DNA of 54,457 nucleotides from a virus: the UHGV virus genome UHGV-0096558; one strand, 5' to 3'. The position numbers and the translations under genes were made by a program. Positions 33,121 to 54,271 of this stretch are shown here, one piece after another. Positions within the stretch are counted from its first letter, which is position 1. The number at the start of each line of letters is the position of its first letter. Below the pieces are notes generated by a model. The model worked only from the letters and a program-made list of their open reading frames with translations. It ran no database searches and was not told where the DNA came from.

Positions 33121-33279
33121 AGTTCACAAAATGGCGTCATTGCGTGATATGGATCACATAATGGCGCTTTTCGCTTTGTTCTGGTGTATCCATATTGTAT
33201 ACTTCAAGCAAACAAAATGCTCTTTAAAAATCCGGCAGCGCTGAAATGCGTAGAAATCACCTGAAAAGGAGAGAGCATT

Positions 33280-34891: not shown

Positions 34892-35620
34892 ATGAATCTT
34901 GAATCCATTCTAAAATTCCATTTTCCGAAATCACCGCGATTATCTGACGAAAGCCGGGGCACGTCCCCGGACGCGCTTAATACTACGGATGCACTAACCG
35001 CCGCTGGCATGGCGCAATCGCGAGTAGAGCTTGGATATAGCGCTTTTTTAGGGAAGATGGAACTATCGCAAGCCGAAAAACACAGGGCCGTAGTTTTGCT
35101 TACAGAGCGTTTAAGAGCTATGGCGAAAGATTACGAATACGTGATGGAATTAAATGAAGAACAACGCAATGATCTTATTATTCTTGTTGCCGTTTTCGCG
35201 TTTCGGGATTATTGCCAGAGTGCGGCGACAGAAAAAGTTTGCCCTAAGTGCGGCGGTCACGGGCATTTACCAAATCCATATTGCGAATACACATCAACAA
35301 TTTGCGCACGGTGCGGCGGCAAAGGTTACGTTAAAAACCATTGCCAACGTTGCAAGGGGCGTGGAGAAGTACCGGATAAAACAGCCAGCGAAGCGGCGGA
35401 AATGCCAGTATTCAAAACGTGCCAGCATTGCGGCGGGCGCGGGGACTCGCGTTTCCCGGTAGATCTCGTCCGGCAGGCGGTTAATCAGCTTGTTTTTCCG
35501 GTAAGCCGATCAACATGGTGGAAGAAATACCGGGTTTTCTATGAAGACGCCATAGCTGAGCTATTCAAAGAAGAGGCCCGCGCGGAAAGTGAGATCAAAC
35601 TAGTGACACGGGGTGAATAA
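34892..35620 (+). CDS. zinc-finger protein with four CxxCxGxG repeats; possible late-gene antiterminator (Q-like)
   Basis: CPKCGGHGH, CARCGGKGY, CQRCKGRGE, CQHCGGRGD; position downstream of nin/RusA genes. Confidence 0.4.
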   Translation: MNLESILKFHFPKSPRLSDESRGTSPDALNTTDALTAAGMAQSRVELGYSAFLGKMELSQAEKHRAVVLLTERLRAMAKDYEYVMELNEEQRNDLIILVAVFAFRDYCQSAATEKVCPKCGGHGHLPNPYCEYTSTICARCGGKGYVKNHCQRCKGRGEVPDKTASEAAEMPVFKTCQHCGGRGDSRFPVDLVRQAVNQLVFPVSRSTWWKKYRVFYEDAIAELFKEEARAESEIKLVTRGE

Positions 35621-35820
35621 TGGATAAGCTGGAAATAAACGATCGGTTCGCTGTTATCTTATTTGAAGATAAAACAGGCGGCGCATGGTGTAAGAAAGTT
35701 ACTGGTGCTGAAGCACGATTAATACTAGGCATGGCAAGCGCATTAAACGAAGGTGAATTGCCCGCCATCCCTGTTAAGCCAGTGCATATCTATAAAAGGG
35801 GCGACGATGAAAATAATTAA
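35620..35820 (+). CDS. hypothetical protein, 66 aa
   Basis: ORF track. Confidence 0.5.
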   Translation: MDKLEINDRFAVILFEDKTGGAWCKKVTGAEARLILGMASALNEGELPAIPVKPVHIYKRGDDENN

Positions 35821-36154
35821 CATCGGGTGGTTATATTGCGAAAACTGCGACGACGACGGCATGGTCGTTAAGACTGAAAAAGGTTGCGGCTTCATACTGT
35901 ATCAAGACGATAAGTTTGTTTGCCCGCGATGCGGTGGTCGTGGTGAGATAGAAATCGTTGATGATATTGCTACCGCACCTAAGCCATCGCGCATTGTCCT
36001 TGATGAAAAAATAAAAATTCATCCTGATTTATTACAGCAAATTATCGATCACGTATCGGCAGCCGCAATCTATGGCGATAACAATTATCAGCGTGAAATG
36101 AACGTCGAACGTGTAATTGAGCAGTATTTCGAAGGTGACGACAATGAAGCCTAA
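35807..36154 (+). CDS. zinc-ribbon protein, 115 aa (CENC...CPRCGG)
   Basis: ATG at 35807 within ORF 35753..36154. Confidence 0.5.
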   Translation: MKIINIGWLYCENCDDDGMVVKTEKGCGFILYQDDKFVCPRCGGRGEIEIVDDIATAPKPSRIVLDEKIKIHPDLLQQIIDHVSAAAIYGDNNYQREMNVERVIEQYFEGDDNEA

Positions 36155-36413
36155 ATTAAAAGAACATGAATTTAGGGAGCTTGTAAACGGAATAACTGAT
36201 AAGGCTAGGGCGTACTCAAATACACAACAATTAAGGGCGGTGATAATTACGGAATTAAGGAAATATATAGACCTAAGAGATCCTGTCGATGTTATGACGA
36301 TGGACGAGGCCATCAAGCGCCGGACTGCTGAATGGTCAGTTAGTAACACCGGATTAACCGGATACATTGAAGGCTATAACGACTGTTTACAGGATCATAG
36401 CGATGGCAAGTAA
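36144..36413 (+). CDS. hypothetical protein, 89 aa
   Basis: ATG at 36144 within ORF 36117..36413. Confidence 0.5.
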   Translation: MKPKLKEHEFRELVNGITDKARAYSNTQQLRAVIITELRKYIDLRDPVDVMTMDEAIKRRTAEWSVSNTGLTGYIEGYNDCLQDHSDGK

Positions 36414-36708
36414 AGACCTGCATTTGAATCTGAAAGGGGAATATTTCCACGCTATCCGGGCGGGAAAGAAGGTGGAGGAATACCGGCTTTATAATGACTA
36501 TTGGCGCAAGCGCTTGGAAGGTCGGGAATATGAACGTTTGTTCATTAAATGGGGTTATCCAGCAGGACACGAAGAACACCGGATTATAGATCTACCTTAT
36601 TTTGGCTATGAAGTGAAAACAATCATACATCCGTTGTTCGGACCTGATCCTGTTAAGGTATTCGCAATTAAATGTGATGTGAATTGGATGCTAAGAGGTG
36701 AAAAATGA
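36403..36708 (+). CDS. ASCH-like (PUA-fold) domain protein, 101 aa
   Basis: ...EYFHAIRAGKKVEEYR... resembles the ASCH G-K-T-x-E-x-R signature. Confidence 0.4.
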   Translation: MASKDLHLNLKGEYFHAIRAGKKVEEYRLYNDYWRKRLEGREYERLFIKWGYPAGHEEHRIIDLPYFGYEVKTIIHPLFGPDPVKVFAIKCDVNWMLRGEK

Positions 36709-36917
36709 AAAGTAACCGTAAACGCCTGGTAAGGGCATATGACAAAGCCTTAAAGGCTTTTGACGATCTGAGACACAATAAACGCCAGCGCCGTAAATGG
36801 GCGCGAATGCTTGTTAGTGAATGGCATAACGAAGATTTCTTTTTGGAAGCGCGGCACATGACGCAAGAAGACGCGGATCAATTAGCTTACGATAACGTTT
36901 ACTATATGATGTGGTGA
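36705..36917 (+). CDS. hypothetical protein, 70 aa
   Basis: ORF track. Confidence 0.5.
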   Translation: MKSNRKRLVRAYDKALKAFDDLRHNKRQRRKWARMLVSEWHNEDFFLEARHMTQEDADQLAYDNVYYMMW

Positions 36918-36921
36918 TAAT

Positions 36922-37287
36922 ATGCAGATAATCATTGATTACCTTTGCCACGCTGCAAATACAATTTTCGGTATGTATCAACAACCGTTTCTCAAAGAAT
37001 GGGATGATATGCTAAACGACATCCTCGACAAAGGATTAATAATGGAGGTTGACGAGCTTACAATCAGATTTAATTATGAGGGTGAAGAATATCTAATTTG
37101 GGTGGGTAATAGATGGTATTCATACGGTCATATTTATTCAATTGGTGGTAAGTTCATTAAAAGAAAACAGGAATTCAGACCGCGCTTCCGCACAATGCGC
37201 CGCCTGCATGATCTGCATATGAAGTTATTCGAAGATCAGGAAGCACGGGAGTTATTCAAAATTTACGGGGATAAATCATGGAGCTAA
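36922..37287 (+). CDS. hypothetical protein, 121 aa
   Basis: ORF track. Confidence 0.55.
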   Translation: MQIIIDYLCHAANTIFGMYQQPFLKEWDDMLNDILDKGLIMEVDELTIRFNYEGEEYLIWVGNRWYSYGHIYSIGGKFIKRKQEFRPRFRTMRRLHDLHMKLFEDQEARELFKIYGDKSWS

Positions 37288-37508
37288 AAATCTGGCAGGC
37301 TATCGACGTAGTTGATAATGAATTGTCTATGTTTGCCACTGACGGAAAGCGCGTGGTGATCGCTACATGGACGCGCTTGCATGACGATATCACTTTTCGC
37401 CGCAAAGTTGCCGAGGGTCTTTTCTCTGATGGCGGCTACACGATGAATATCGCACAGCTTGCCAGAATGAAGGATGAAAAGCTGGTAGACAGCTATACAA
37501 CAGCATAA
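37278..37508 (+). CDS. hypothetical protein, 76 aa
   Basis: ORF track. Confidence 0.5.
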   Translation: MELKIWQAIDVVDNELSMFATDGKRVVIATWTRLHDDITFRRKVAEGLFSDGGYTMNIAQLARMKDEKLVDSYTTA

Positions 37509-37518
37509 CGGGGTAAAT

Positions 37519-37752
37519 ATGCGTATCTATGAACACAAGTGGGATAAAACCCGCTTTTTTGTTCGTGCTGGCGTGGCGTACCAGTATCACGAATGCGGAT
37601 ATATTGAGGCGCTTGCTTACGACCTGGATTTCGAACAAGAAAGAGAATGGTTTGATTTCAAGATCTACCGGAAACGCAAGCCAACGCGCGACGAGCGCCA
37701 CGCTATCCGGGACTTTTTAATCAGCATTGACCGCTGGGAGGCAGAGGAATGA
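37519..37752 (+). CDS. hypothetical protein, 77 aa
   Basis: ORF track. Confidence 0.5.
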   Translation: MRIYEHKWDKTRFFVRAGVAYQYHECGYIEALAYDLDFEQEREWFDFKIYRKRKPTRDERHAIRDFLISIDRWEAEE

Positions 37753-37976
37753 AAGTTAAATTCTTGCACGATCACGGATACCCTTCATTGAAACATGTTG
37801 TTGGTAAGGTCGTTAATGTCGTCCATAGCGATGAGATTACTTGCATGATTAATGGTGCTGATCTCATTGCCGCTGGTGCTGATGACCATTATATCAATCC
37901 GGCGTGGTCGTATACGTTCAGTCTTGGTGACTTCGTGGGTGACAAGGGGCGCGGTCTGCAAATAGTCGAGGGTTAA
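37749..37976 (+). CDS. hypothetical protein, 75 aa
   Basis: ORF track. Confidence 0.5.
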   Translation: MKVKFLHDHGYPSLKHVVGKVVNVVHSDEITCMINGADLIAAGADDHYINPAWSYTFSLGDFVGDKGRGLQIVEG

Positions 37977-37980
37977 TATC

Positions 37981-38196
37981 ATGGACGTTTACGAAGATTT
38001 ATACCTTCAGACAAATACCCGCACTTTTTATTTTCTGAAAAACGGCGTCGTATATCGCAGCGATGACGGGGTAATAATGAAAGAGTGGTTATTTAAGCGT
38101 AAAGACCTACTCGACGATCTGGTTTTTGCCGGGATATTCCGTAAACGTCCGGCTAACCTGGAAGAAGAAATGTTGATCGACGAGGTATTAAAATGA
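37981..38196 (+). CDS. hypothetical protein, 71 aa
   Basis: ORF track. Confidence 0.5.
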   Translation: MDVYEDLYLQTNTRTFYFLKNGVVYRSDDGVIMKEWLFKRKDLLDDLVFAGIFRKRPANLEEEMLIDEVLK

Positions 38197-38438
38197 AAGT
38201 GAATTATTTCAGGGCAAAAGACAAGGCAACAGGAAAGCGGGTGGCTATCCTGGTTAATGAAGCAAATTATATGTTTGTTCTCCAGCCGTGGTGCATAGCT
38301 GACTATAACGATGATTATCGCCGTCACGCTGCGCGGCGGGCGGTCGGGATGAAAGGCTGGCAACCGCGAGACATGCTTAATTATTGCGACTGGAACCTGA
38401 TAGCAAAATACACGGTCGATTATAAAGGGGTTTTCTGA
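38193..38438 (+). CDS. hypothetical protein, 81 aa
   Basis: ORF track. Confidence 0.5.
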   Translation: MKVNYFRAKDKATGKRVAILVNEANYMFVLQPWCIADYNDDYRRHAARRAVGMKGWQPRDMLNYCDWNLIAKYTVDYKGVF

Positions 38439-38440
38439 TT

Positions 38441-38656
38441 ATGTTTGCAAGATGCGTTTATTCTGACACTACGTGCTTTACTACTGGCGAACTATATAGC
38501 GTTGATCTTCTTAATGGGTGCGAGCGCGGCGCTGGCGGTATTCATTATGTAAAAGATAATGATGGCGATGCGTGGCAATTTTACGGCGATTACGTAAAAG
38601 GGGTTGTTAAGGGTAGTTTTGATAATCGTGTGATGGCGCGTTTTGTTAAGTGGTGA
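38441..38656 (+). CDS. small protein, paralogue family member (C..S...F..G..Y ... D..G..W.FY pattern)
   Basis: ORF track; shares motif with 38666..38905 and 38902..39126. Confidence 0.5.
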   Translation: MFARCVYSDTTCFTTGELYSVDLLNGCERGAGGIHYVKDNDGDAWQFYGDYVKGVVKGSFDNRVMARFVKW

Positions 38657-38665
38657 GGTAGTGTT

Positions 38666-38905
38666 ATGAGACAGAATCAGAGATACCAGTGCACATACTC
38701 ACGATGCAGCGCGTTTTTTAAGAATGGCAAGATCTACGAAGTCGGCGCGGCATTGGTTGACGCAAAGGATCAGGAATATATTCACGCCATTACTGACGAC
38801 CAGGGCCAGTTATGGCGATTTTATAAGATGGGCTGTGGCACTGCGCTTGTTTATGCGCGTGCTGGTGGTGGTGCTTTTGCTGCGTTTTCGTATGTAGGGG
38901 TATGA
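38666..38905 (+). CDS. small protein, paralogue family member
   Basis: ORF track; CTYSRCSAFFKNGKIYEV...DDQGQLWRFY. Confidence 0.5.
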   Translation: MRQNQRYQCTYSRCSAFFKNGKIYEVGAALVDAKDQEYIHAITDDQGQLWRFYKMGCGTALVYARAGGGAFAAFSYVGV

Positions 38906-39126
38906 AAATGATTTTAACGTGTAACGAGTCGGAATTAGGCTGTTTTGAGGAAGGCGCACAGTATACGGCTGAAAAACCGATGGGATTGTCGCCTAAGTTG
39001 CCGTTTATCGTCGTGACTGACACTTACGGTCACTTATGGTATGCAGAGCCGCGCCGGGGGACTGGTCGCTACGTTGTCCGTAGTTCTGACGGGGCTATGA
39101 AAGTTACTTTTACGGAAGAAACATAA
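38902..39126 (+). CDS. small protein, paralogue family member
   Basis: ORF track; CNESELGCFEEGAQYTA...DTYGHLWYAE. Confidence 0.5.
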   Translation: MKMILTCNESELGCFEEGAQYTAEKPMGLSPKLPFIVVTDTYGHLWYAEPRRGTGRYVVRSSDGAMKVTFTEET

Positions 39127-39184
39127 ATGTGATCTTCATCACAAGGTATACAAAATGGCATTGTTTCGGCAGTGCCATTTTGTT
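39127..39184. promoter_or_regulatory. compound element: palindrome GTGATCTTCATCAC, then TATACAAAATGGCA / TGCCATTTTGT inverted repeat (11-bp arms, 11-bp spacer)
   Basis: Read directly; upstream of gene 39225. Confidence 0.4.
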
Positions 39185-39224
39185 ATAAAGAAGCTGAAGA
39201 GAGAACAATGCGGAGGGCAGAAAA

Positions 39225-39497
39225 ATGAAACGCTGGATTAACGAAGAAACAGAAGCCCGCTTCAATGCAATTTGGGATCTGATTGAAAAAGAGGACGGCG
39301 TTTCTAGTCCCTACCTGAACAATCTTGAGTTCCACTATGTAGAAGCGATGAACGCAGAGCATGACCACGAAGGCGGTGCTGATGAATTCGCCAAAAAATA
39401 CGGCTTCGATGATGCAAACCATATGATTAACAACGTGGTGATGCAGGCAGAGGAAGACTACGAATGCAAATCACTTGAATTCGCACGCATGGCATAA
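39225..39497 (+). CDS. hypothetical protein, 90 aa
   Basis: ORF track; RBS GGAGGG. Confidence 0.55.
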   Translation: MKRWINEETEARFNAIWDLIEKEDGVSSPYLNNLEFHYVEAMNAEHDHEGGADEFAKKYGFDDANHMINNVVMQAEEDYECKSLEFARMA

Positions 39498-39507
39498 GGG
39501 GGAAAAC

Positions 39508-39648
39508 ATGAACGCTAACGCTAAATATCCGGCTTGGGTTTTCGAACTGTACGCAAGATACTTTGAATTACTGGCACCAGATGAAGAAGCATTAAGCATT
39601 GACGAGTACGCGGAGTGCTTAGGATTTAAAGGAGACGAAGAAGCATAA
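39508..39648 (+). CDS. small ORF, 46 aa, acidic
   Basis: Manual translation; RBS AGGGGGA. Confidence 0.4.
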   Translation: MNANAKYPAWVFELYARYFELLAPDEEALSIDEYAECLGFKGDEEA

Positions 39649-39691
39649 AACACGGGGCCGGATGGCCCCATCAAATCAGAAGGGTGTAATT

Positions 39692-39991
39692 ATGAAAAGC
39701 GCTAAATTTATTGCGTGCTGTTTTGTTGAAGTCCCTAACGATGATGTTTTCTGCAATTATGAATTTAAAGACAGCGCCGGAATCGTTCATGTTGTGGTTG
39801 GCAAGCGTGGCGACTGGTTATATATCACTGATGGAGACAGGATCTTCACTAAAAACCAGTTATTCAGAATAAAGTCAGAAAATAATGAAATACCTGTAGG
39901 TAATATGGGGATCATGAATTACCACGCCTGCTTATGGTTAAAATCTGATGCGGTAAATAAAGCGCGTAGCTTACCTGGTGCTGAATTTTAA
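39692..39991 (+). CDS. hypothetical protein, 99 aa (possible distant member of the small paralogue family)
   Basis: ATG at 39692 within ORF 39662..39991; RBS AAGGGTG. Confidence 0.5.
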   Translation: MKSAKFIACCFVEVPNDDVFCNYEFKDSAGIVHVVVGKRGDWLYITDGDRIFTKNQLFRIKSENNEIPVGNMGIMNYHACLWLKSDAVNKARSLPGAEF

Positions 39992-40014
39992 TTTCTTACG
40001 AAGGAGAATAAACA

Positions 40015-40338
40015 ATGACTAAATTTATCAGCGTTAAGGTTTTCCGTGGCACTATTCCAGAAGGTGAAAAATACGGCAAATTCGGTGGAATGCCTGGTGC
40101 ATGTTTCCGTGTAGCAACGGAAGACGACGAGCATGTTAAATGCTTCCACGTATCGGAGCCGCCTTTTAATCCAGAACATCTTGAAAACCCTGATAAGGTT
40201 AAAATGTTCGTTTTTGCTTCACTGATGCTTAATCCTTACCCTGATCTTGATGTCGAGTTGGTTGGCGCGGAAAAGATCGCGGAATACAAAATAACAGAAT
40301 CGGAAGACGGAGACTCAAAAATTGAGCGCATCAAATAA
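40015..40338 (+). CDS. hypothetical protein, 107 aa
   Basis: ORF track; RBS AAGGAGAA. Confidence 0.55.
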   Translation: MTKFISVKVFRGTIPEGEKYGKFGGMPGACFRVATEDDEHVKCFHVSEPPFNPEHLENPDKVKMFVFASLMLNPYPDLDVELVGAEKIAEYKITESEDGDSKIERIK

Positions 40339-40570
40339 ACCTTACAAAATCCGGTGTAAAGGTGAATACCCTGGCTTTACGACTGGTTGCGAATACCTGG
40401 GCCACATTGGGTACGGTCCTTTTGGTGAGTTAGGGATGAATACGATGGACGACGACGGCGATAATCGGACGCTCGATCTTGATACGGATGACTTCGAATA
40501 TATCCCGCAAGTTACTTACCGTGCCGTTGATGATTTCCTGGCTGAACAAGAAGACGACGAGGATGATTAA
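40322..40570 (+). CDS. hypothetical acidic protein, 82 aa
   Basis: ORF track. Confidence 0.5.
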   Translation: MSASNKPYKIRCKGEYPGFTTGCEYLGHIGYGPFGELGMNTMDDDGDNRTLDLDTDDFEYIPQVTYRAVDDFLAEQEDDEDD

Positions 40571-40702
40571 ATGGAAGAGTGGTATAAAAATTTATTAATC
40601 ATGTTTCTTGCTGAAAATTGGGCGCTATTTGAGCGTTTTTGCGATGAGCATGGTGAAGACCCTAACGATATTTATCACGATCTTGGGGGTGAGGATGATT
40701 AA
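40571..40702 (+). CDS. small ORF, 43 aa
   Basis: Manual translation; start directly after upstream stop. Confidence 0.35.
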   Translation: MEEWYKNLLIMFLAENWALFERFCDEHGEDPNDIYHDLGGEDD

Positions 40703-40895
40703 CTGCCTTGTGGCCGTAATTATTTTGCTATATATCGCTGGCGCTATCCTGATGTCTTGTTTTATCAGAAGTAACGATCTCGATCGTGGTGGCCTTGAGA
40801 TTACTTTCTGGCCTGTAGCGGTATTTATCGCTTTCGTTGAAGCTACGCGCATACAGATCAAAAGAGCTATTAAGGAGCGTAAAAATGGGAAATAG
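40696..40895 (+). CDS. small membrane protein, 66 aa, two predicted TM helices
   Basis: ATG at 40696 within ORF 40608..40895; RBS GGGGGTGAGG. Confidence 0.45.
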
Positions 40896-41109
40896 CGACC
40901 ATGAATATGACGGTGTTTATCAGTCATTGGCGTCACGCGCTTATTATCGCCTTGAAGGTGAACACGTAATGATGCGATTACTCCAGTGTGATCCGTGGCA
41001 TAAAACAATTTTACCTGTGACAGCGAAAGAAGTTATCACGATGTTTAATCACGGGCACTGGCGCAAGGTTGGTGATATTAAATTCAGGATGTTTAAGGAT
41101 GGTGATTAA
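40885..41109 (+). CDS. hypothetical protein, 74 aa
   Basis: ATG at 40885 with RBS AAGGAGCG. Confidence 0.5.
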   Translation: MGNSDHEYDGVYQSLASRAYYRLEGEHVMMRLLQCDPWHKTILPVTAKEVITMFNHGHWRKVGDIKFRMFKDGD

Positions 41110-41292
41110 ATGATTGAAGATGGCATATACGCCGTAACACTAATCGACAAGATGTTTTATCGCGTAGAGGGTGGTGATATTCGCGTTTGCGTTAGCGATG
41201 GTGAGTGGGTAGCGCCAATCATCAAGACGACGCGAGAAACAATTAAAATCTGGCTTGATAATGGTGATTTGGTGAAAGTTAGTGATTTGTAG
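41110..41292 (+). CDS. hypothetical protein, 60 aa
   Basis: ORF track. Confidence 0.5.
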   Translation: MIEDGIYAVTLIDKMFYRVEGGDIRVCVSDGEWVAPIIKTTRETIKIWLDNGDLVKVSDL

Positions 41293-41355
41293 CCATAATC
41301 GCGCATAAAAAACAAATAGATTAAAATATTTCCTAACAATGCGAAATTGTAATTA

Positions 41356-41378
41356 CCCGGCCCAGCGCCGGGTTTTTG
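41356..41378 (+). terminator. rho-independent terminator (CCCGGC / GCCGGG then T5) immediately upstream of lysis cassette
   Basis: Read directly; position analogous to a tR-prime-type late terminator. Confidence 0.6.
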
Positions 41379-41397
41379 CTTTGTTGGAGGAAAATCT

Positions 41398-41598
41398 ATG
41401 TTCGACAAAATACGGGAGGCGTGCGCGTATGTGACCGGGGCCGTAACTGCTTTTTTCGGCGCGATAACCATCAATGACATTGCCGTCTTTGTGGGTATCT
41501 TATCAACCGTAGGCACATTTGCCGTTAACTATTACTTCAAATCACAGGAGAACAAACGAGCGCAAGAGGAACACGACGCGCGAATGGGGAATAAGTAA
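41398..41598 (+). CDS. holin, small two-TM, pinholin-like
   Basis: 66 aa, two hydrophobic helices, charged C-terminus; immediately upstream of SAR endolysin. Confidence 0.7.
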
Positions 41599-41599
41599 C

Positions 41600-42091
41600 A
41601 TGATTAGCCAATCGCTGAAGAATAAAATTATTGCTGCGGCGGCTGGTGGGGCGATCGCTATTGCGGCTGTGATGGTTAAACCATTAGAAGGCGTGGAGTA
41701 CGATCCGTATCGTGATGTTATCGGTGTATGGACTGTTTGCTATGGTCATACCGGGAAAGACATCATGCTGGGTAAGACTTACACGCAATCAGAATGCGAT
41801 GCATTGTTAAATAAAGACCTGCACAAAACCGCAAAAGCGATCGATCCTTATATTAAAGTCGAAATATCAGATTTTACCCGCGCGGCGCTTTATTCATTCG
41901 CCTATAACGTAGGCGCTACCAACTTCAAAACATCAACATTATTAAAACTACTCAATGACGGCAAGAAATCAGAAGCGTGCGCACAGCTTAAACGCTGGAT
42001 TTATGCTGGTGGTAAACAGTGGCAAGGTTTAATCAACCGCCGTGATGTTGAATATGCCGTTTGCGAATGGGGGGAAACGTGGACAAGGTGA
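41600..42091 (+). CDS. SAR endolysin (lysozyme with N-terminal signal-anchor-release helix)
   Basis: N-terminal Gly/Ala-rich TM ([17 protein letters not shown]), then E..(8)..D..(5)..T catalytic pattern ([22 protein letters not shown]). Confidence 0.8.
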
Positions 42092-42549
42092 AGGCGTTAA
42101 TCATCGCCGCTATCGTTTGTGTCGTTGTTGGGCTTGTTGCCGCGCTTAGTCACTGTCAGTCAGTGATAAACACAATGCAAAGCGAGCTAACTACTACGCA
42201 GGGCGCACTAAAAACAGCAAGTAACACTATTCAGCAGATGAAGGAGCGAAACGCCGAACTGTCAAAACTTGATAAGAGGTATCACGATGAAATTAAAGCT
42301 ATCAGATCTGACATTGCTGATCTGCGTGCTGGTATTGATAGCGGTGCTATCCGGTTGCACGTCAACGCAATACCAGTGCGAGTGTCAGACGCCACCGGAA
42401 CCGCCAGCAGCATTGATGGAGCCGCCTGTAGACTCACTCCCGACGCTGAATCGGCTTATCTATCCCTCAGAGAACAACTAAAAGAGAAAGACGCGAAGAT
42501 CACCGGATTGCAGGACTACATCAAGACGCAGTGCATACGCAAAGAATAA
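42082..42549 (+). CDS. i-spanin (Rz-like)
   Basis: N-terminal TM then coiled coil; GTG at 42082 with RBS GGGGGG (alternative ATG at 42067); overlaps endolysin stop. Confidence 0.65.
42287..42481 (+). CDS. o-spanin (Rz1-like outer-membrane lipoprotein) embedded in the i-spanin gene in another frame
   Basis: Signal peptide with lipobox LSGC, Pro-rich mature region; entirely inside the Rz-like gene. Confidence 0.65.
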   Translation: MKLKLSDLTLLICVLVLIAVLSGCTSTQYQCECQTPPEPPAALMEPPVDSLPTLNRLIYPSENN

Positions 42550-42886
42550 CAGCGCGTGGACGTGTCGCCGTTTCCGCCAGCCAGCCATAACCGGGCCAAT
42601 CCTTCCCGCGAGCGACGGCGGAAAAGTCAAAAACACGTAATACCGGATCAACAGTCCCATTAACAGGTCGGCGCTACCTGGGTAGAAGAAAGCGCCATTC
42701 ACTCACCTGCCACGCGTAGGACGAGCGCCCGGATCTGTTTATCAGAGATGTTAAGCAGGTCCAGTTTTATAAAATTCTGCAAACGGTACTCACTAAGCGC
42801 CGTTTTCAGTGTTTTATATCTGTTTTCACTCCCTGCGGTGTCGAGTTTTGCGGGGGTTATATTTTTCAGAATAGGAGATTATTCTG

Positions 42887-43429
42887 ATGGCTAAGGCTAA
42901 AGGCATTAAGTTGCCTCAATTCAAGATCCCACTCTTTGAGCATACAACCGTTTTCTTTTGCCCGACCCGCGAGATGTTTTATGAATTTTGCGAAAAGGCA
43001 GGAATTCCAATTGAACCTGATTTCGAACTGGCGGGAGGATTGACGCTTACTTGCACTGGTGAGAAAGGCGGTAACTTCTACGTGATCGCAGTATTCGACA
43101 ATGAGTTAGGAACACTGGTCCATGAATGCGCTCACACCACATTCCATGTTTTAAGTGATGTAGGCGTCGTGGCGACCACTGATCCAACTCATCCGGCGAA
43201 TGAGACTTACGCTTACATGGTAGGCCGCATCTTTGATGCATTTTTCCCTATACTGGCTGAATCAAACGAAGCACAGGTTGCAGCAATGCAGGCGGCTGAA
43301 GTCGTCGAGCAGGCATTAGAACAGGCAGAACAGCCGAAGGAAGAAGAAAAACCCGCGAAGAAAGGCAAACGTAAGCCGAAATCAAAAGAAGCGTATGTAC
43401 CGCGCGTAATGAGCTTTAAACGAGGCTGA
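42887..43429 (+). CDS. hypothetical protein with HExxH motif (HECAH); possible zinc-metallopeptidase-like protein with basic Lys-rich C-terminus
   Basis: ORF track; RBS AGGAGA; HECAHTTFH at residues about 78-86. Confidence 0.55.
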   Translation: MAKAKGIKLPQFKIPLFEHTTVFFCPTREMFYEFCEKAGIPIEPDFELAGGLTLTCTGEKGGNFYVIAVFDNELGTLVHECAHTTFHVLSDVGVVATTDPTHPANETYAYMVGRIFDAFFPILAESNEAQVAAMQAAEVVEQALEQAEQPKEEEKPAKKGKRKPKSKEAYVPRVMSFKRG

Positions 43430-51176: not shown

Positions 51177-51195
51177 TTTTGTATTTCCTGTAACT

Positions 51196-51223
51196 CCCCG
51201 GCGCGATGCCGGGGATTTTTTTT
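51196..51223 (+). terminator. rho-independent terminator (TCCCCGGC / GCCGGGGA then T8)
   Basis: Read directly after capsid gene. Confidence 0.7.
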
Positions 51224-53525: not shown

Positions 53526-53578
53526 TAAACAATTTCAACAATCGGGGCCATCTGGCCCCTTTCTTTTAGGGTGAAACT

Positions 53579-54256
53579 ATGATTCATGTTCGTACCGGAC
53601 AATTTGCAGCGGTGGTGAACGGTAAACGCTATGAATTTAACCCGTGCTTCGCTGCGATGGCTAAGATAGGTAATGACAGGGAACTGGTTGAATACTTCGC
53701 GCTTATCCATGGAAGCAAATACCCTTCACGCTTACCTGTAGATCCAGACCTCCGCAAACGCGTTATGGCGCGGTGTTATGGTGAGATAGTGCAAACGTCA
53801 ATACACATCCTTAAATGTTGCTCAGACGACGAAACAGGCCCGTTATTGGGCGAATGCTGGTTTACTCCTTCAGGTAAGTTAAAGTTAAAGCCCGGATTAA
53901 TGCCGATCGAGGATGTCATCACGCTTGCGCAGCACTGCATGTACCACGGTCTTATTGGTGATGGCCCGGAAGAGGAATCCGGGGAGATCCAGGAGGGGGA
54001 ATATAAGCCAACGTTTGACATACTGGAATTCGTTTATTCTGCCGTTGCTCACCTGGGATTGTCAGAATCTGAAGCATGGGCCATGACTATGACCGGATAT
54101 AGGGCCGCTGTACGCGCTAAAACGCCGCCAGACGAAAGAAATGAGAGAAGCAAACCAAACGTTCACATAAATAAACGTGCTTATGACGAGCAAATGGAGG
54201 CCGCTAAAAGGGTGTTAGAAATGATGAAAAATCGTGAGCAAGAAAAAGCCCGGTAG
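53579..54256 (+). CDS. putative tail assembly chaperone
   Basis: Position between tail tube and (across the window junction) tape measure; acidic; no frameshift partner ORF recognised. Confidence 0.4.
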   Translation: MIHVRTGQFAAVVNGKRYEFNPCFAAMAKIGNDRELVEYFALIHGSKYPSRLPVDPDLRKRVMARCYGEIVQTSIHILKCCSDDETGPLLGECWFTPSGKLKLKPGLMPIEDVITLAQHCMYHGLIGDGPEEESGEIQEGEYKPTFDILEFVYSAVAHLGLSESEAWAMTMTGYRAAVRAKTPPDERNERSKPNVHINKRAYDEQMEAAKRVLEMMKNREQEKAR

Positions 54257-54271
54257 ATCCGGGCGTTTTTG
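54247..54271. terminator. bidirectional terminator-like hairpin (GCCCGG / CCGGGC) with T-run downstream and A-run upstream
   Basis: Between convergent chaperone gene and minus-strand ORF fragment. Confidence 0.5.

Follow-up and report, generated by a model that had tools for sequence, protein, structure and literature searches.

How a phage could switch on its late genes when its Q antiterminator is encoded kilobases away from the site at which Q should act is the question raised by virus genome UHGV-0096558, whose 54,457 nucleotides were analysed in full and are referred to here as the window. In the window, an intrinsic terminator is followed by genes for a holin, an endolysin and a nested pair of spanins, and a Q-like gene lies 5.7 kb upstream. 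We propose that these elements form the late-gene switch and lysis cassette of a temperate coliphage of the mEpimmI group and that they work in a lambda-like manner, a reading to which we assign a probability of about 75% from the sequence. Judged by homology, the cassette combines a lambda-family Q system with a signal-arrest-release (SAR) endolysin of the phage 21 type, an HP1-type holin and embedded spanins.

Comparison of positions 41000-43000 with GenBank returned seven phages at 88-94% identity (MagusPhagus, mEp010, mEp013, mEp021, mEp044, mEp515 and mEp554). This identity extends over 41.3-43.0 kb and is accompanied by a common gene order, NinG-Rus-Q-island-holin-lysozyme-Rz-terminase. 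By sequence, then, the window is a member of the published mEpimmI group, described in PMC11893012 as Nus-dependent, non-lambdoid temperate coliphages from human faeces. The same module is present as a prophage in 35 complete E. coli genomes, and the exact regulatory motif was found in 37 IMG/VR contigs of 8-77 kb, mostly about 50-57 kb. Identity between the window and the IMG/VR sequence IMGVR_UViG_3300010283_000003 is only about 81-95%.

In the mEp021 record (MH706966), the homologues of the lysis genes are labelled 'putative class II holin', 'putative lysozyme' and 'putative lysis protein', and the same record carries TERM_5 ahead of the holin and a 'putative late gene regulator Q'. The Q-to-holin arrangement is already visible in public annotated genomes. 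The initial annotation of the window overlooked the mEp021 record, as well as the late promoter and an N-like antitermination system whose nut site is 8 kb upstream, both described below. The embedded Rz1, the late promoter and the pause element are unmarked in the mEpimmI GenBank records and in the legible portions of PMC11893012, where a 'Q-lambda-like' protein is named without treatment of the late promoter. For mEpimmI the lysis set is ordinary, and the sole unusual point is a Q gene 5.7 kb from its proposed site of action.

The proposed late promoter and pause element, and the terminator

The 105-nt gap before the holin gene is more conserved than its surroundings and is nearly invariant from 41310 on in the seven phages. 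On the plus strand the segment is laid out as TAAAAT-ATTTCCT-AACAAT-GCGAAATTGTAATTA-terminator. TAAAAT (41322-41327) is the proposed -10 element of a late promoter, PR', with a predicted transcript start near 41334-41335. The -10-like AACAAT (41335-41340), in the initial transcribed region, is the proposed sigma70-dependent pause element at which Q would load. About 15 nt separate AACAAT from the terminator, and the -10 and pause elements lie 20-50 nt upstream of it. The promoter spacer AAACAAAYRGAT (41310-41321, plus strand) is proposed, from its position only, as the candidate Q-binding element. It is near-invariant in phage and prophage relatives, and in many genomes homology starts exactly at 41310. 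TAAAAT is invariant in the seven aligned phage relatives and in two divergent prophages. In prophage RM9245, positions 41310-41385 are 90% identical and the holin gene 65%; in prophage N25 the corresponding values are 97% and 63%.

The same plan of a -10 element, AACxxT and a terminator stands beside Q in lambda, P22, SfV, mEp237, ES18, SE1Spa and Eho59. The late promoter is TAAATT-TGACTC-AACGAT-GGG in lambda and P22, TAAGAT-TTTTCC-AACGAT-GGG in SfV and TAATAT-CGTTTCT-AACAGT-AGAAAT in ES18; the AACAAT of the window is at the same distance from the -10 element as the AACGAT of lambda and P22 and the AACAGT of ES18. Lambda has its Q-binding element between the -35 and -10 elements, and AACGAT at its transcript start is the sigma70-dependent pause element where Q loads (PMC9388147). 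The cassette in the window thus resembles that of lambda and P22 in having a -10 element, a -10-like AACxAT at the transcript start and an intrinsic terminator ahead of the lysis genes, but its spacer, the presumed Q-binding sequence, is unrelated to that of lambda.

A position weight matrix was derived from 68 lambdoid long-form-Q loci taken from IMG/VR. In 52 of the 68, the pattern '-10 plus AACRNT' follows the Q stop codon at a distance of 29-96 nt (median 62), and most of the remainder have AATGAT or a variant -10 within the same layout. The matrix itself was built from 37 unique lambdoid sites, none of them from mEpimmI, and was run over both strands of the whole window (about 109,000 positions). 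The top site was 41319 on the plus strand, with 13.5 bits; the runner-up, 39501 (11.5 bits), falls on the start of a 46-aa open reading frame (ORF; 39508-39648) and was rejected. When 72 independent GTDB loci with lambda-type Q were scanned up to 8 kb downstream of Q, 59 of them had their best site no more than 150 nt from the Q stop codon (median 58 nt), and nearly all of the others had the same architecture with tighter spacing. At the other mEpimmI loci, the matrix picked the pre-holin site in 18 of 18, at 1.9-6.3 kb after Q. These results make it likely that 41310-41340 is a lambda-type late promoter PR' with a sigma-dependent pause element, and they give substance to the suggestion in the initial annotation that the region has a lambda-like late promoter-terminator arrangement.

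Two other candidates were set aside. A promoter scan proposed 41272-41299 (GTGAAA, 16 nt, CATAAT), in which the -35 element falls within a gene not shared by the relatives and the -10 element is unconserved. A site at 35625, just after Q, is within coding sequence and has no terminator behind it.

Several features of the segment weigh against its assignment as PR'. The -35 element is poor in the window (TCGCGC, compared with TTGTGG or TTGTAG in most relatives). The plain -10-plus-AACRNT pattern occurs at chance level, 7 times per strand against about 10 expected, and because it shows no enrichment the case rests on the trained matrix together with conservation. The score at 41319 is below that of the weakest training site (16.2 bits), and the runner-up inside the small ORF is just 2 bits lower. 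Near-invariance, in turn, is weaker evidence than it looks because the mEpimmI sequences are closely related.

One could therefore read 41310-41354 not as a promoter but as the flank of an early-operon terminator, or as an RNA element for translation of the holin, with the late genes transcribed from another promoter, at which Q would act if it acts at all. The weak -35 element would agree with this, and in the predicted fold the terminator stem is lengthened by pairing of UAACAAUGCGAAA with UUUUUGCUUUGUUG, so that the conservation could be partly structural; the extended pairing, however, requires an 8-nt bulge. A second -10-plus-AAC pattern, at 42770, is present in the conserved region after Rz and might supply the other promoter, but it is outside the ten best matrix hits and downstream of the lysis genes, and it was rejected. 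No other site in the window equals the matrix score of 41319, and the same architecture lies between Q and the terminator in the lambdoid relatives examined. We consider a non-promoter role for 41310-41354 very improbable and retain its assignment as PR' with a pause element.

The terminator that would play the role of lambda tR' occupies 41355-41378 on the plus strand and was identified by scanning, folding, annotation in relatives and its conserved stem. ACCCGGC pairs with GCCGGGT across the 5-nt loop CCAGC (41355-41373; 7 pairs, 6 of them G-C), and TTTTT follows at 41374-41378. The predicted fold has an energy of -22.1 kcal/mol (z = -2.9 against shuffles). From the T tract to the holin ATG at 41398 there are 19 nt, in agreement with the initial annotation, which had placed a terminator about 20 nt upstream of the holin gene. 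Terminator-like patterns are no more frequent in the region than in shuffled sequence (11 found, 10.8 expected), and because pattern frequency alone is at chance the call rests on conservation. All 51 related sequences compared have a perfect 6-bp core stem, CCCGGC/GCCGGG, together with 10 different loop sequences and T runs of 4-6; since the stem never varies in these sequences, they offer no compensatory changes. A counterpart is annotated in mEp021 (TERM_5), mEp010, mEp013 and mEp044. PMC11893012 lists the mEp021 terminator 't5' among those demonstrated experimentally, in the context of Gp17. The numbering of the two series runs parallel, and on this basis TERM_5, and with it the terminator of the window, is probably the equivalent of t5.

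The Q gene, its distance from the proposed PR' and early antitermination

The gene proposed to act at PR' lies at 34892-35620 on the plus strand and encodes a protein of 242 aa. The initial annotation had singled it out as a Q-like candidate with four CxxCxGxG repeats, and homology searches now place it in the long-form lambda-Q family. It scores 102.4 bits against PF03589 (Pfam cut-off 26.7), the lambda Q family (PMC9388147), and matches phrog_127 ('anti-termination protein Q-like' in PHROG) end to end. It also aligns along its whole length with the solved structure of lambda Q (PDB 7ubm, E = 7e-35), in two blocks, residues 1-114 and 150-240. The first block spans the N-terminal segment equivalent to the part of lambda Q that refolds into a nozzle in the RNA-exit channel. 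The homology also covers the helix-turn-helix body and the zinc-ribbon 'arm', and the gap between the blocks is in that arm. By these sequence matches, the zinc-finger protein is a true lambda-Q-family antiterminator.

The ORF has exactly four CxxCxGxG motifs, forming two zinc sites, at residues 117, 138, 151 and 177. In a family alignment that included lambda, P22, SfV, ES18 and others, C151, C154, C177 and C180, the equivalents of the lambda cysteines, are invariant, and the other CxxCxGxG pair is an insertion in the arm (residues 117-141). The window Q differs from lambda Q in this additional zinc pair; SfV, ES18, SE1Spa, mEp237 and Erwinia phage 59 also have it in their long-form Q proteins, so a count of four motifs is usual in a long-form lambda-type Q. 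The protein belongs to an isolated clade, in which mEpimmI Q sequences are at least 85% identical to one another and at most 40% identical to others among the best 80 IMG/VR hits and the GTDB representatives. An exact-peptide search found no close relatives of Q in GTDB genomes, and an alignment-based search there yielded only relatives of no more than 38% identity, which leaves no intermediate sequences for a test of co-variation between Q and its site.

A second ORF after Q (35753-36154, probable start about 35807) overlaps the 35620-35820 ORF. Its product is a small zinc-ribbon protein (CENC...CPRCGGRG) that matches DnaJ_CXXCXGXG weakly (18.9 bits, under the cut-off). Q is thus not the sole CxxCxGxG ORF in the region.

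A Q cassette consists of the Q gene and an adjacent PR'-pause-terminator unit (PMC9388147). The window departs from this textbook layout, and from lambda and P22, in that its Q gene is not adjacent to the unit. The first downstream ORF overlaps the Q stop codon (ATGA) with zero intergenic space, and therefore no promoter fits directly after Q. The distance from Q to its site is about 60 nt in lambdoid relatives but 5.7 kb in the window. Because Q acts in trans, this layout is compatible with Q function. The initial annotation had called the separation unusual, which holds against the lambdoid phages but not within mEpimmI, where distances of 1.9-6.3 kb are the norm. Displacement of Q is rare among lambda-type Q loci and universal within the group. 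It is not unique to mEpimmI, since one other clear case is present in the GTDB set, a prophage of Mangrovibacter plantisponsor (locus L175, NZ_QGTS01000029.1) with the unit TAGATT-TTATCT-AACGATGGG...terminator about 1.8 kb downstream of Q.

Between Q and the lysis genes lies a variable island (35620-41292), which is 5.7 kb long in the window and about 2 kb in mEp021. It holds about 23 small plus-strand ORFs, in keeping with the more than 20 small genes counted by the initial annotation; all of their matches in PHROG and Pfam are to families of unknown function. Because these genes are positioned upstream of the late promoter, they would be expected on an early, N-dependent transcript. We regard the odds as even that, in mEpimmI, a hypervariable island of 2-6 kb has physically separated Q from its promoter/pause/terminator unit and that the genes of this island are early and N-dependent rather than late 'morons'.

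The last two ORFs of the island, 40837-41109 and 41110-41292, just upstream of the late promoter, both match phrog_15318 (E = 3e-5 and 8e-29, respectively) and are therefore tandem paralogues; in relatives other genes occupy this position, and homology picks up again at 41310. Two hairpins were seen within the island. One, at 39152-39185 in the 39127-39224 gap, is weakly terminator-like (ATGGCA/TGCCAT followed by TTTTGTT), and mEp044 has an annotated terminator at the counterpart of this gap. The other, at 39652-39671, is G+C-rich and has its T run on the minus strand.

Early antitermination bears on the role of Q. A candidate nutR2 at 33218-33253 (plus strand) consists of a boxA-like TGCTCTTTAAAAA and a boxB-like hairpin GCGCTGAAATGCG, and a candidate nutL at 24535-24498 (minus strand) has the identical boxA-like TGCTCTTTAAAAA and a hairpin. 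In both, the hairpin is short, has an A-rich loop and begins 7 nt past the boxA-like sequence. By itself, a boxA match of 10 nt is not rarer than expected by chance. According to PMC11893012, the N-like protein Gp17 mediates early antitermination at three nut sites, of which nutR2 sits just downstream of a cytosine methyltransferase gene. As judged by sequence, the two candidates fit the published Gp17 system of mEp021.

The presence of an N-like system argues against a Q-dependent switch to the extent that a nut site on the same strand, 8 kb upstream, could alone carry polymerase through the terminator. Read-through would then be due mainly to Gp17-modified polymerase arriving from nutR2 across 8 kb that include Q and the island, with Q either uninvolved or in a boosting role, and the lysis genes would be the tail of the early right operon. 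Between nutR2 and 41355 the plus strand has no strong terminator, just weak hairpins, and lambda N-modified polymerase also reads through tR'. In addition, t5 is listed as an experimentally demonstrated terminator in a phage whose Gp17 acts at three nut sites (PMC11893012). This explanation, however, leaves unexplained both the near-invariant lambda-type promoter and pause element ahead of the terminator and the retention, in every relative examined, of a full-length Q with a conserved nozzle-forming N-terminus. There are also strong plus-strand terminators deep in the late head and tail region, at 51195-51215, 53544-53559 and 54248-54264. The first of these, with a 9-bp stem (7 G-C pairs) and a run of eight T residues, follows the major capsid gene, like TERM_7 of mEp021. 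Expression beyond such terminators would need a processive antiterminator, and a dedicated late antiterminator that works from a strong late promoter accounts for them better than Gp17 does. We therefore think it unlikely that Gp17 is the main agent of read-through. The two routes are not mutually exclusive, and Gp17 probably contributes alongside Q at PR'.

The lysis genes

The holin gene (41398-41598, plus strand) encodes 66 aa and is preceded by the Shine-Dalgarno sequence GGAGGA at 41386-41391. Hydropathy marks two segments, at about residues 8-25 and 28-47, as hydrophobic, and the C-terminal tail is charged; this matches the short, two-transmembrane-helix protein of the initial annotation. 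The product is a class II holin of the HP1 family. It scores 57 bits against PF16080 (Phage_holin_2_3, the HP1 holin family; cut-off 28.8) and matches phrog_20, and its homologues are named 'HP1 family phage holin' in RefSeq. Beyond the group it is closest to class II holins from P22-like Salmonella phages (about 51% identity); other relatives are family members from Burkholderia and Pasteurellaceae phages, the latter at about 40% identity. The gene has a single start codon, and because the ORF opens at the first start codon past the upstream stop, there is no dual-start antiholin of the lambda or phage 21 style.

In E. coli, HP1 Hol caused cell death but neither lysis nor leakage of beta-galactosidase, and was read as a pinholin working with a SAR endolysin (PMC7312051). 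Like HP1 Hol, the holin of the window has a SAR-type muramidase as its partner. Membership of the HP1 family together with this partner makes it reasonable, and in our view probable, that it too is a pinholin, as the initial annotation had proposed. HP1 differs in host and in phage type and is only distantly related, and the pinholin behaviour reported for its holin is extended to the window by family membership. The comparison with phage 21 tells against the assignment: the holin scores 24.2 bits against the S21 family PF04971, just under the cut-off of 26, and BLASTP with the phage 21 S21 pinholin gave no alignment.

The endolysin gene (41600-42091, plus strand) encodes a GH24 muramidase of 163 aa of the phage 21 R and RrrD type. 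It scores 150 bits against PF00959 and matches the structures of phage 21 R (3hde, 3hdf) and DLP12 RrrD (4zpu) at E values of about 1e-64 (3hde, 4e-64). The catalytic triad, spaced E-8-D-5-T, is present as E30, D39 and T45. Residues 9-26 are rich in Gly and Ala and weakly hydrophobic, and they align with the SAR segments of R21 and RrrD in 3hde and 4zpu, which corroborates the SAR helix recognised in the initial annotation. R21 is the textbook SAR endolysin and is activated by refolding. On sequence grounds the window protein is a close homologue of this experimentally established enzyme, and it shares with the phage 21 and DLP12 loci the order holin, endolysin and Rz with an embedded Rz1.

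The i-spanin gene Rz (42079-42549, plus strand) encodes a protein with an N-terminal transmembrane helix (hydrophobic residues about 5-23) and a coiled-coil periplasmic domain, which scores 90 bits against PF03245 and matches phrog_13 over its full length. In-frame alternatives to its start are available at ATG 42067 and GTG 42088; the 42079 start agrees with the mEp021 and RefSeq annotations. The o-spanin gene Rz1 (42287-42481, plus strand) lies wholly inside Rz in the +1 frame, as reported by the initial annotation and as in lambda Rz/Rz1. Its product, a lipoprotein, scores 35.7 bits against PF06085 (cut-off 27.9), matches phrog_3198, and has a lipobox, LSG|C, with Cys24 as the first residue of a proline-rich mature part of 41 aa. 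Q, holin, endolysin, Rz and Rz1, all five proteins of the system, are thus identified by homology.

After Rz, a 338-nt gap (42550-42887) is highly conserved, and its G+C-rich part, 42550-42700, is almost invariant in the seven phages. Four relatives carry a 59-bp segment at about 42701-42759 that three others lack. The minus-strand ORF that overlaps the gap (42478-42702) has no Pfam hit, and the gap has no Rfam hit; possible identities for the gap are a cos-type packaging site, a small RNA and a gene missed by annotation. For the window as a whole, Rfam at gathering thresholds and a tRNA scan gave no matches, and NCBIfam supplied no useful names for its proteins.

A model of the late switch and its meaning for mEpimmI

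In the model that we favour, Gp17 acting at the nut sites would keep early rightward transcription processive and so allow expression of NinG, Rus, Q and the roughly 23 small genes. Q would then work in trans, at a late promoter lying 5.7 kb downstream of the Q gene. Without Q, polymerase starting at about 41334 would halt at 41355-41378, yielding a leader RNA of about 45 nt. This predicted leader is shorter than the 194-nt late leader RNA of lambda and resembles the short leader of P22, whose annotated late RNA starts about 30 nt ahead of the annotated terminator. Q would load on polymerase paused about 16 nt past the start near 41334, the terminator stem beginning at about +22. Once modified, polymerase would ignore this terminator and later ones, and the holin, endolysin, spanin, packaging, head and tail genes would be expressed.

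Lysis is predicted to follow the pinholin pathway. The endolysin would be exported by Sec and held inactive at the membrane by its Gly/Ala-rich N-terminal helix while the two-helix holin accumulates. At its trigger time the holin would depolarise the membrane through pinhole formation, the endolysin would be freed and would refold into an active muramidase, and the Rz/Rz1 spanin complex would then disrupt the outer membrane.

The main value of these results is for annotation, in that the likely late promoter, the likely Q loading site and the embedded Rz1 are located in a group of phages said to be prevalent in the human gut. Understanding of antitermination or of lysis is unchanged by them. 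With its displaced Q gene the window is a small but clean departure from the textbook arrangement of Q next to PR'. The model predicts that the 20-odd small genes of the island are early genes, and that lysogens constitutively make the leader RNA. If Q has indeed been uncoupled from its unit as proposed, mEpimmI phages would be a natural test of whether Q must be made beside its site, and the island would be a preferred insertion hotspot for early-expressed accessory genes, possibly with anti-defence functions.

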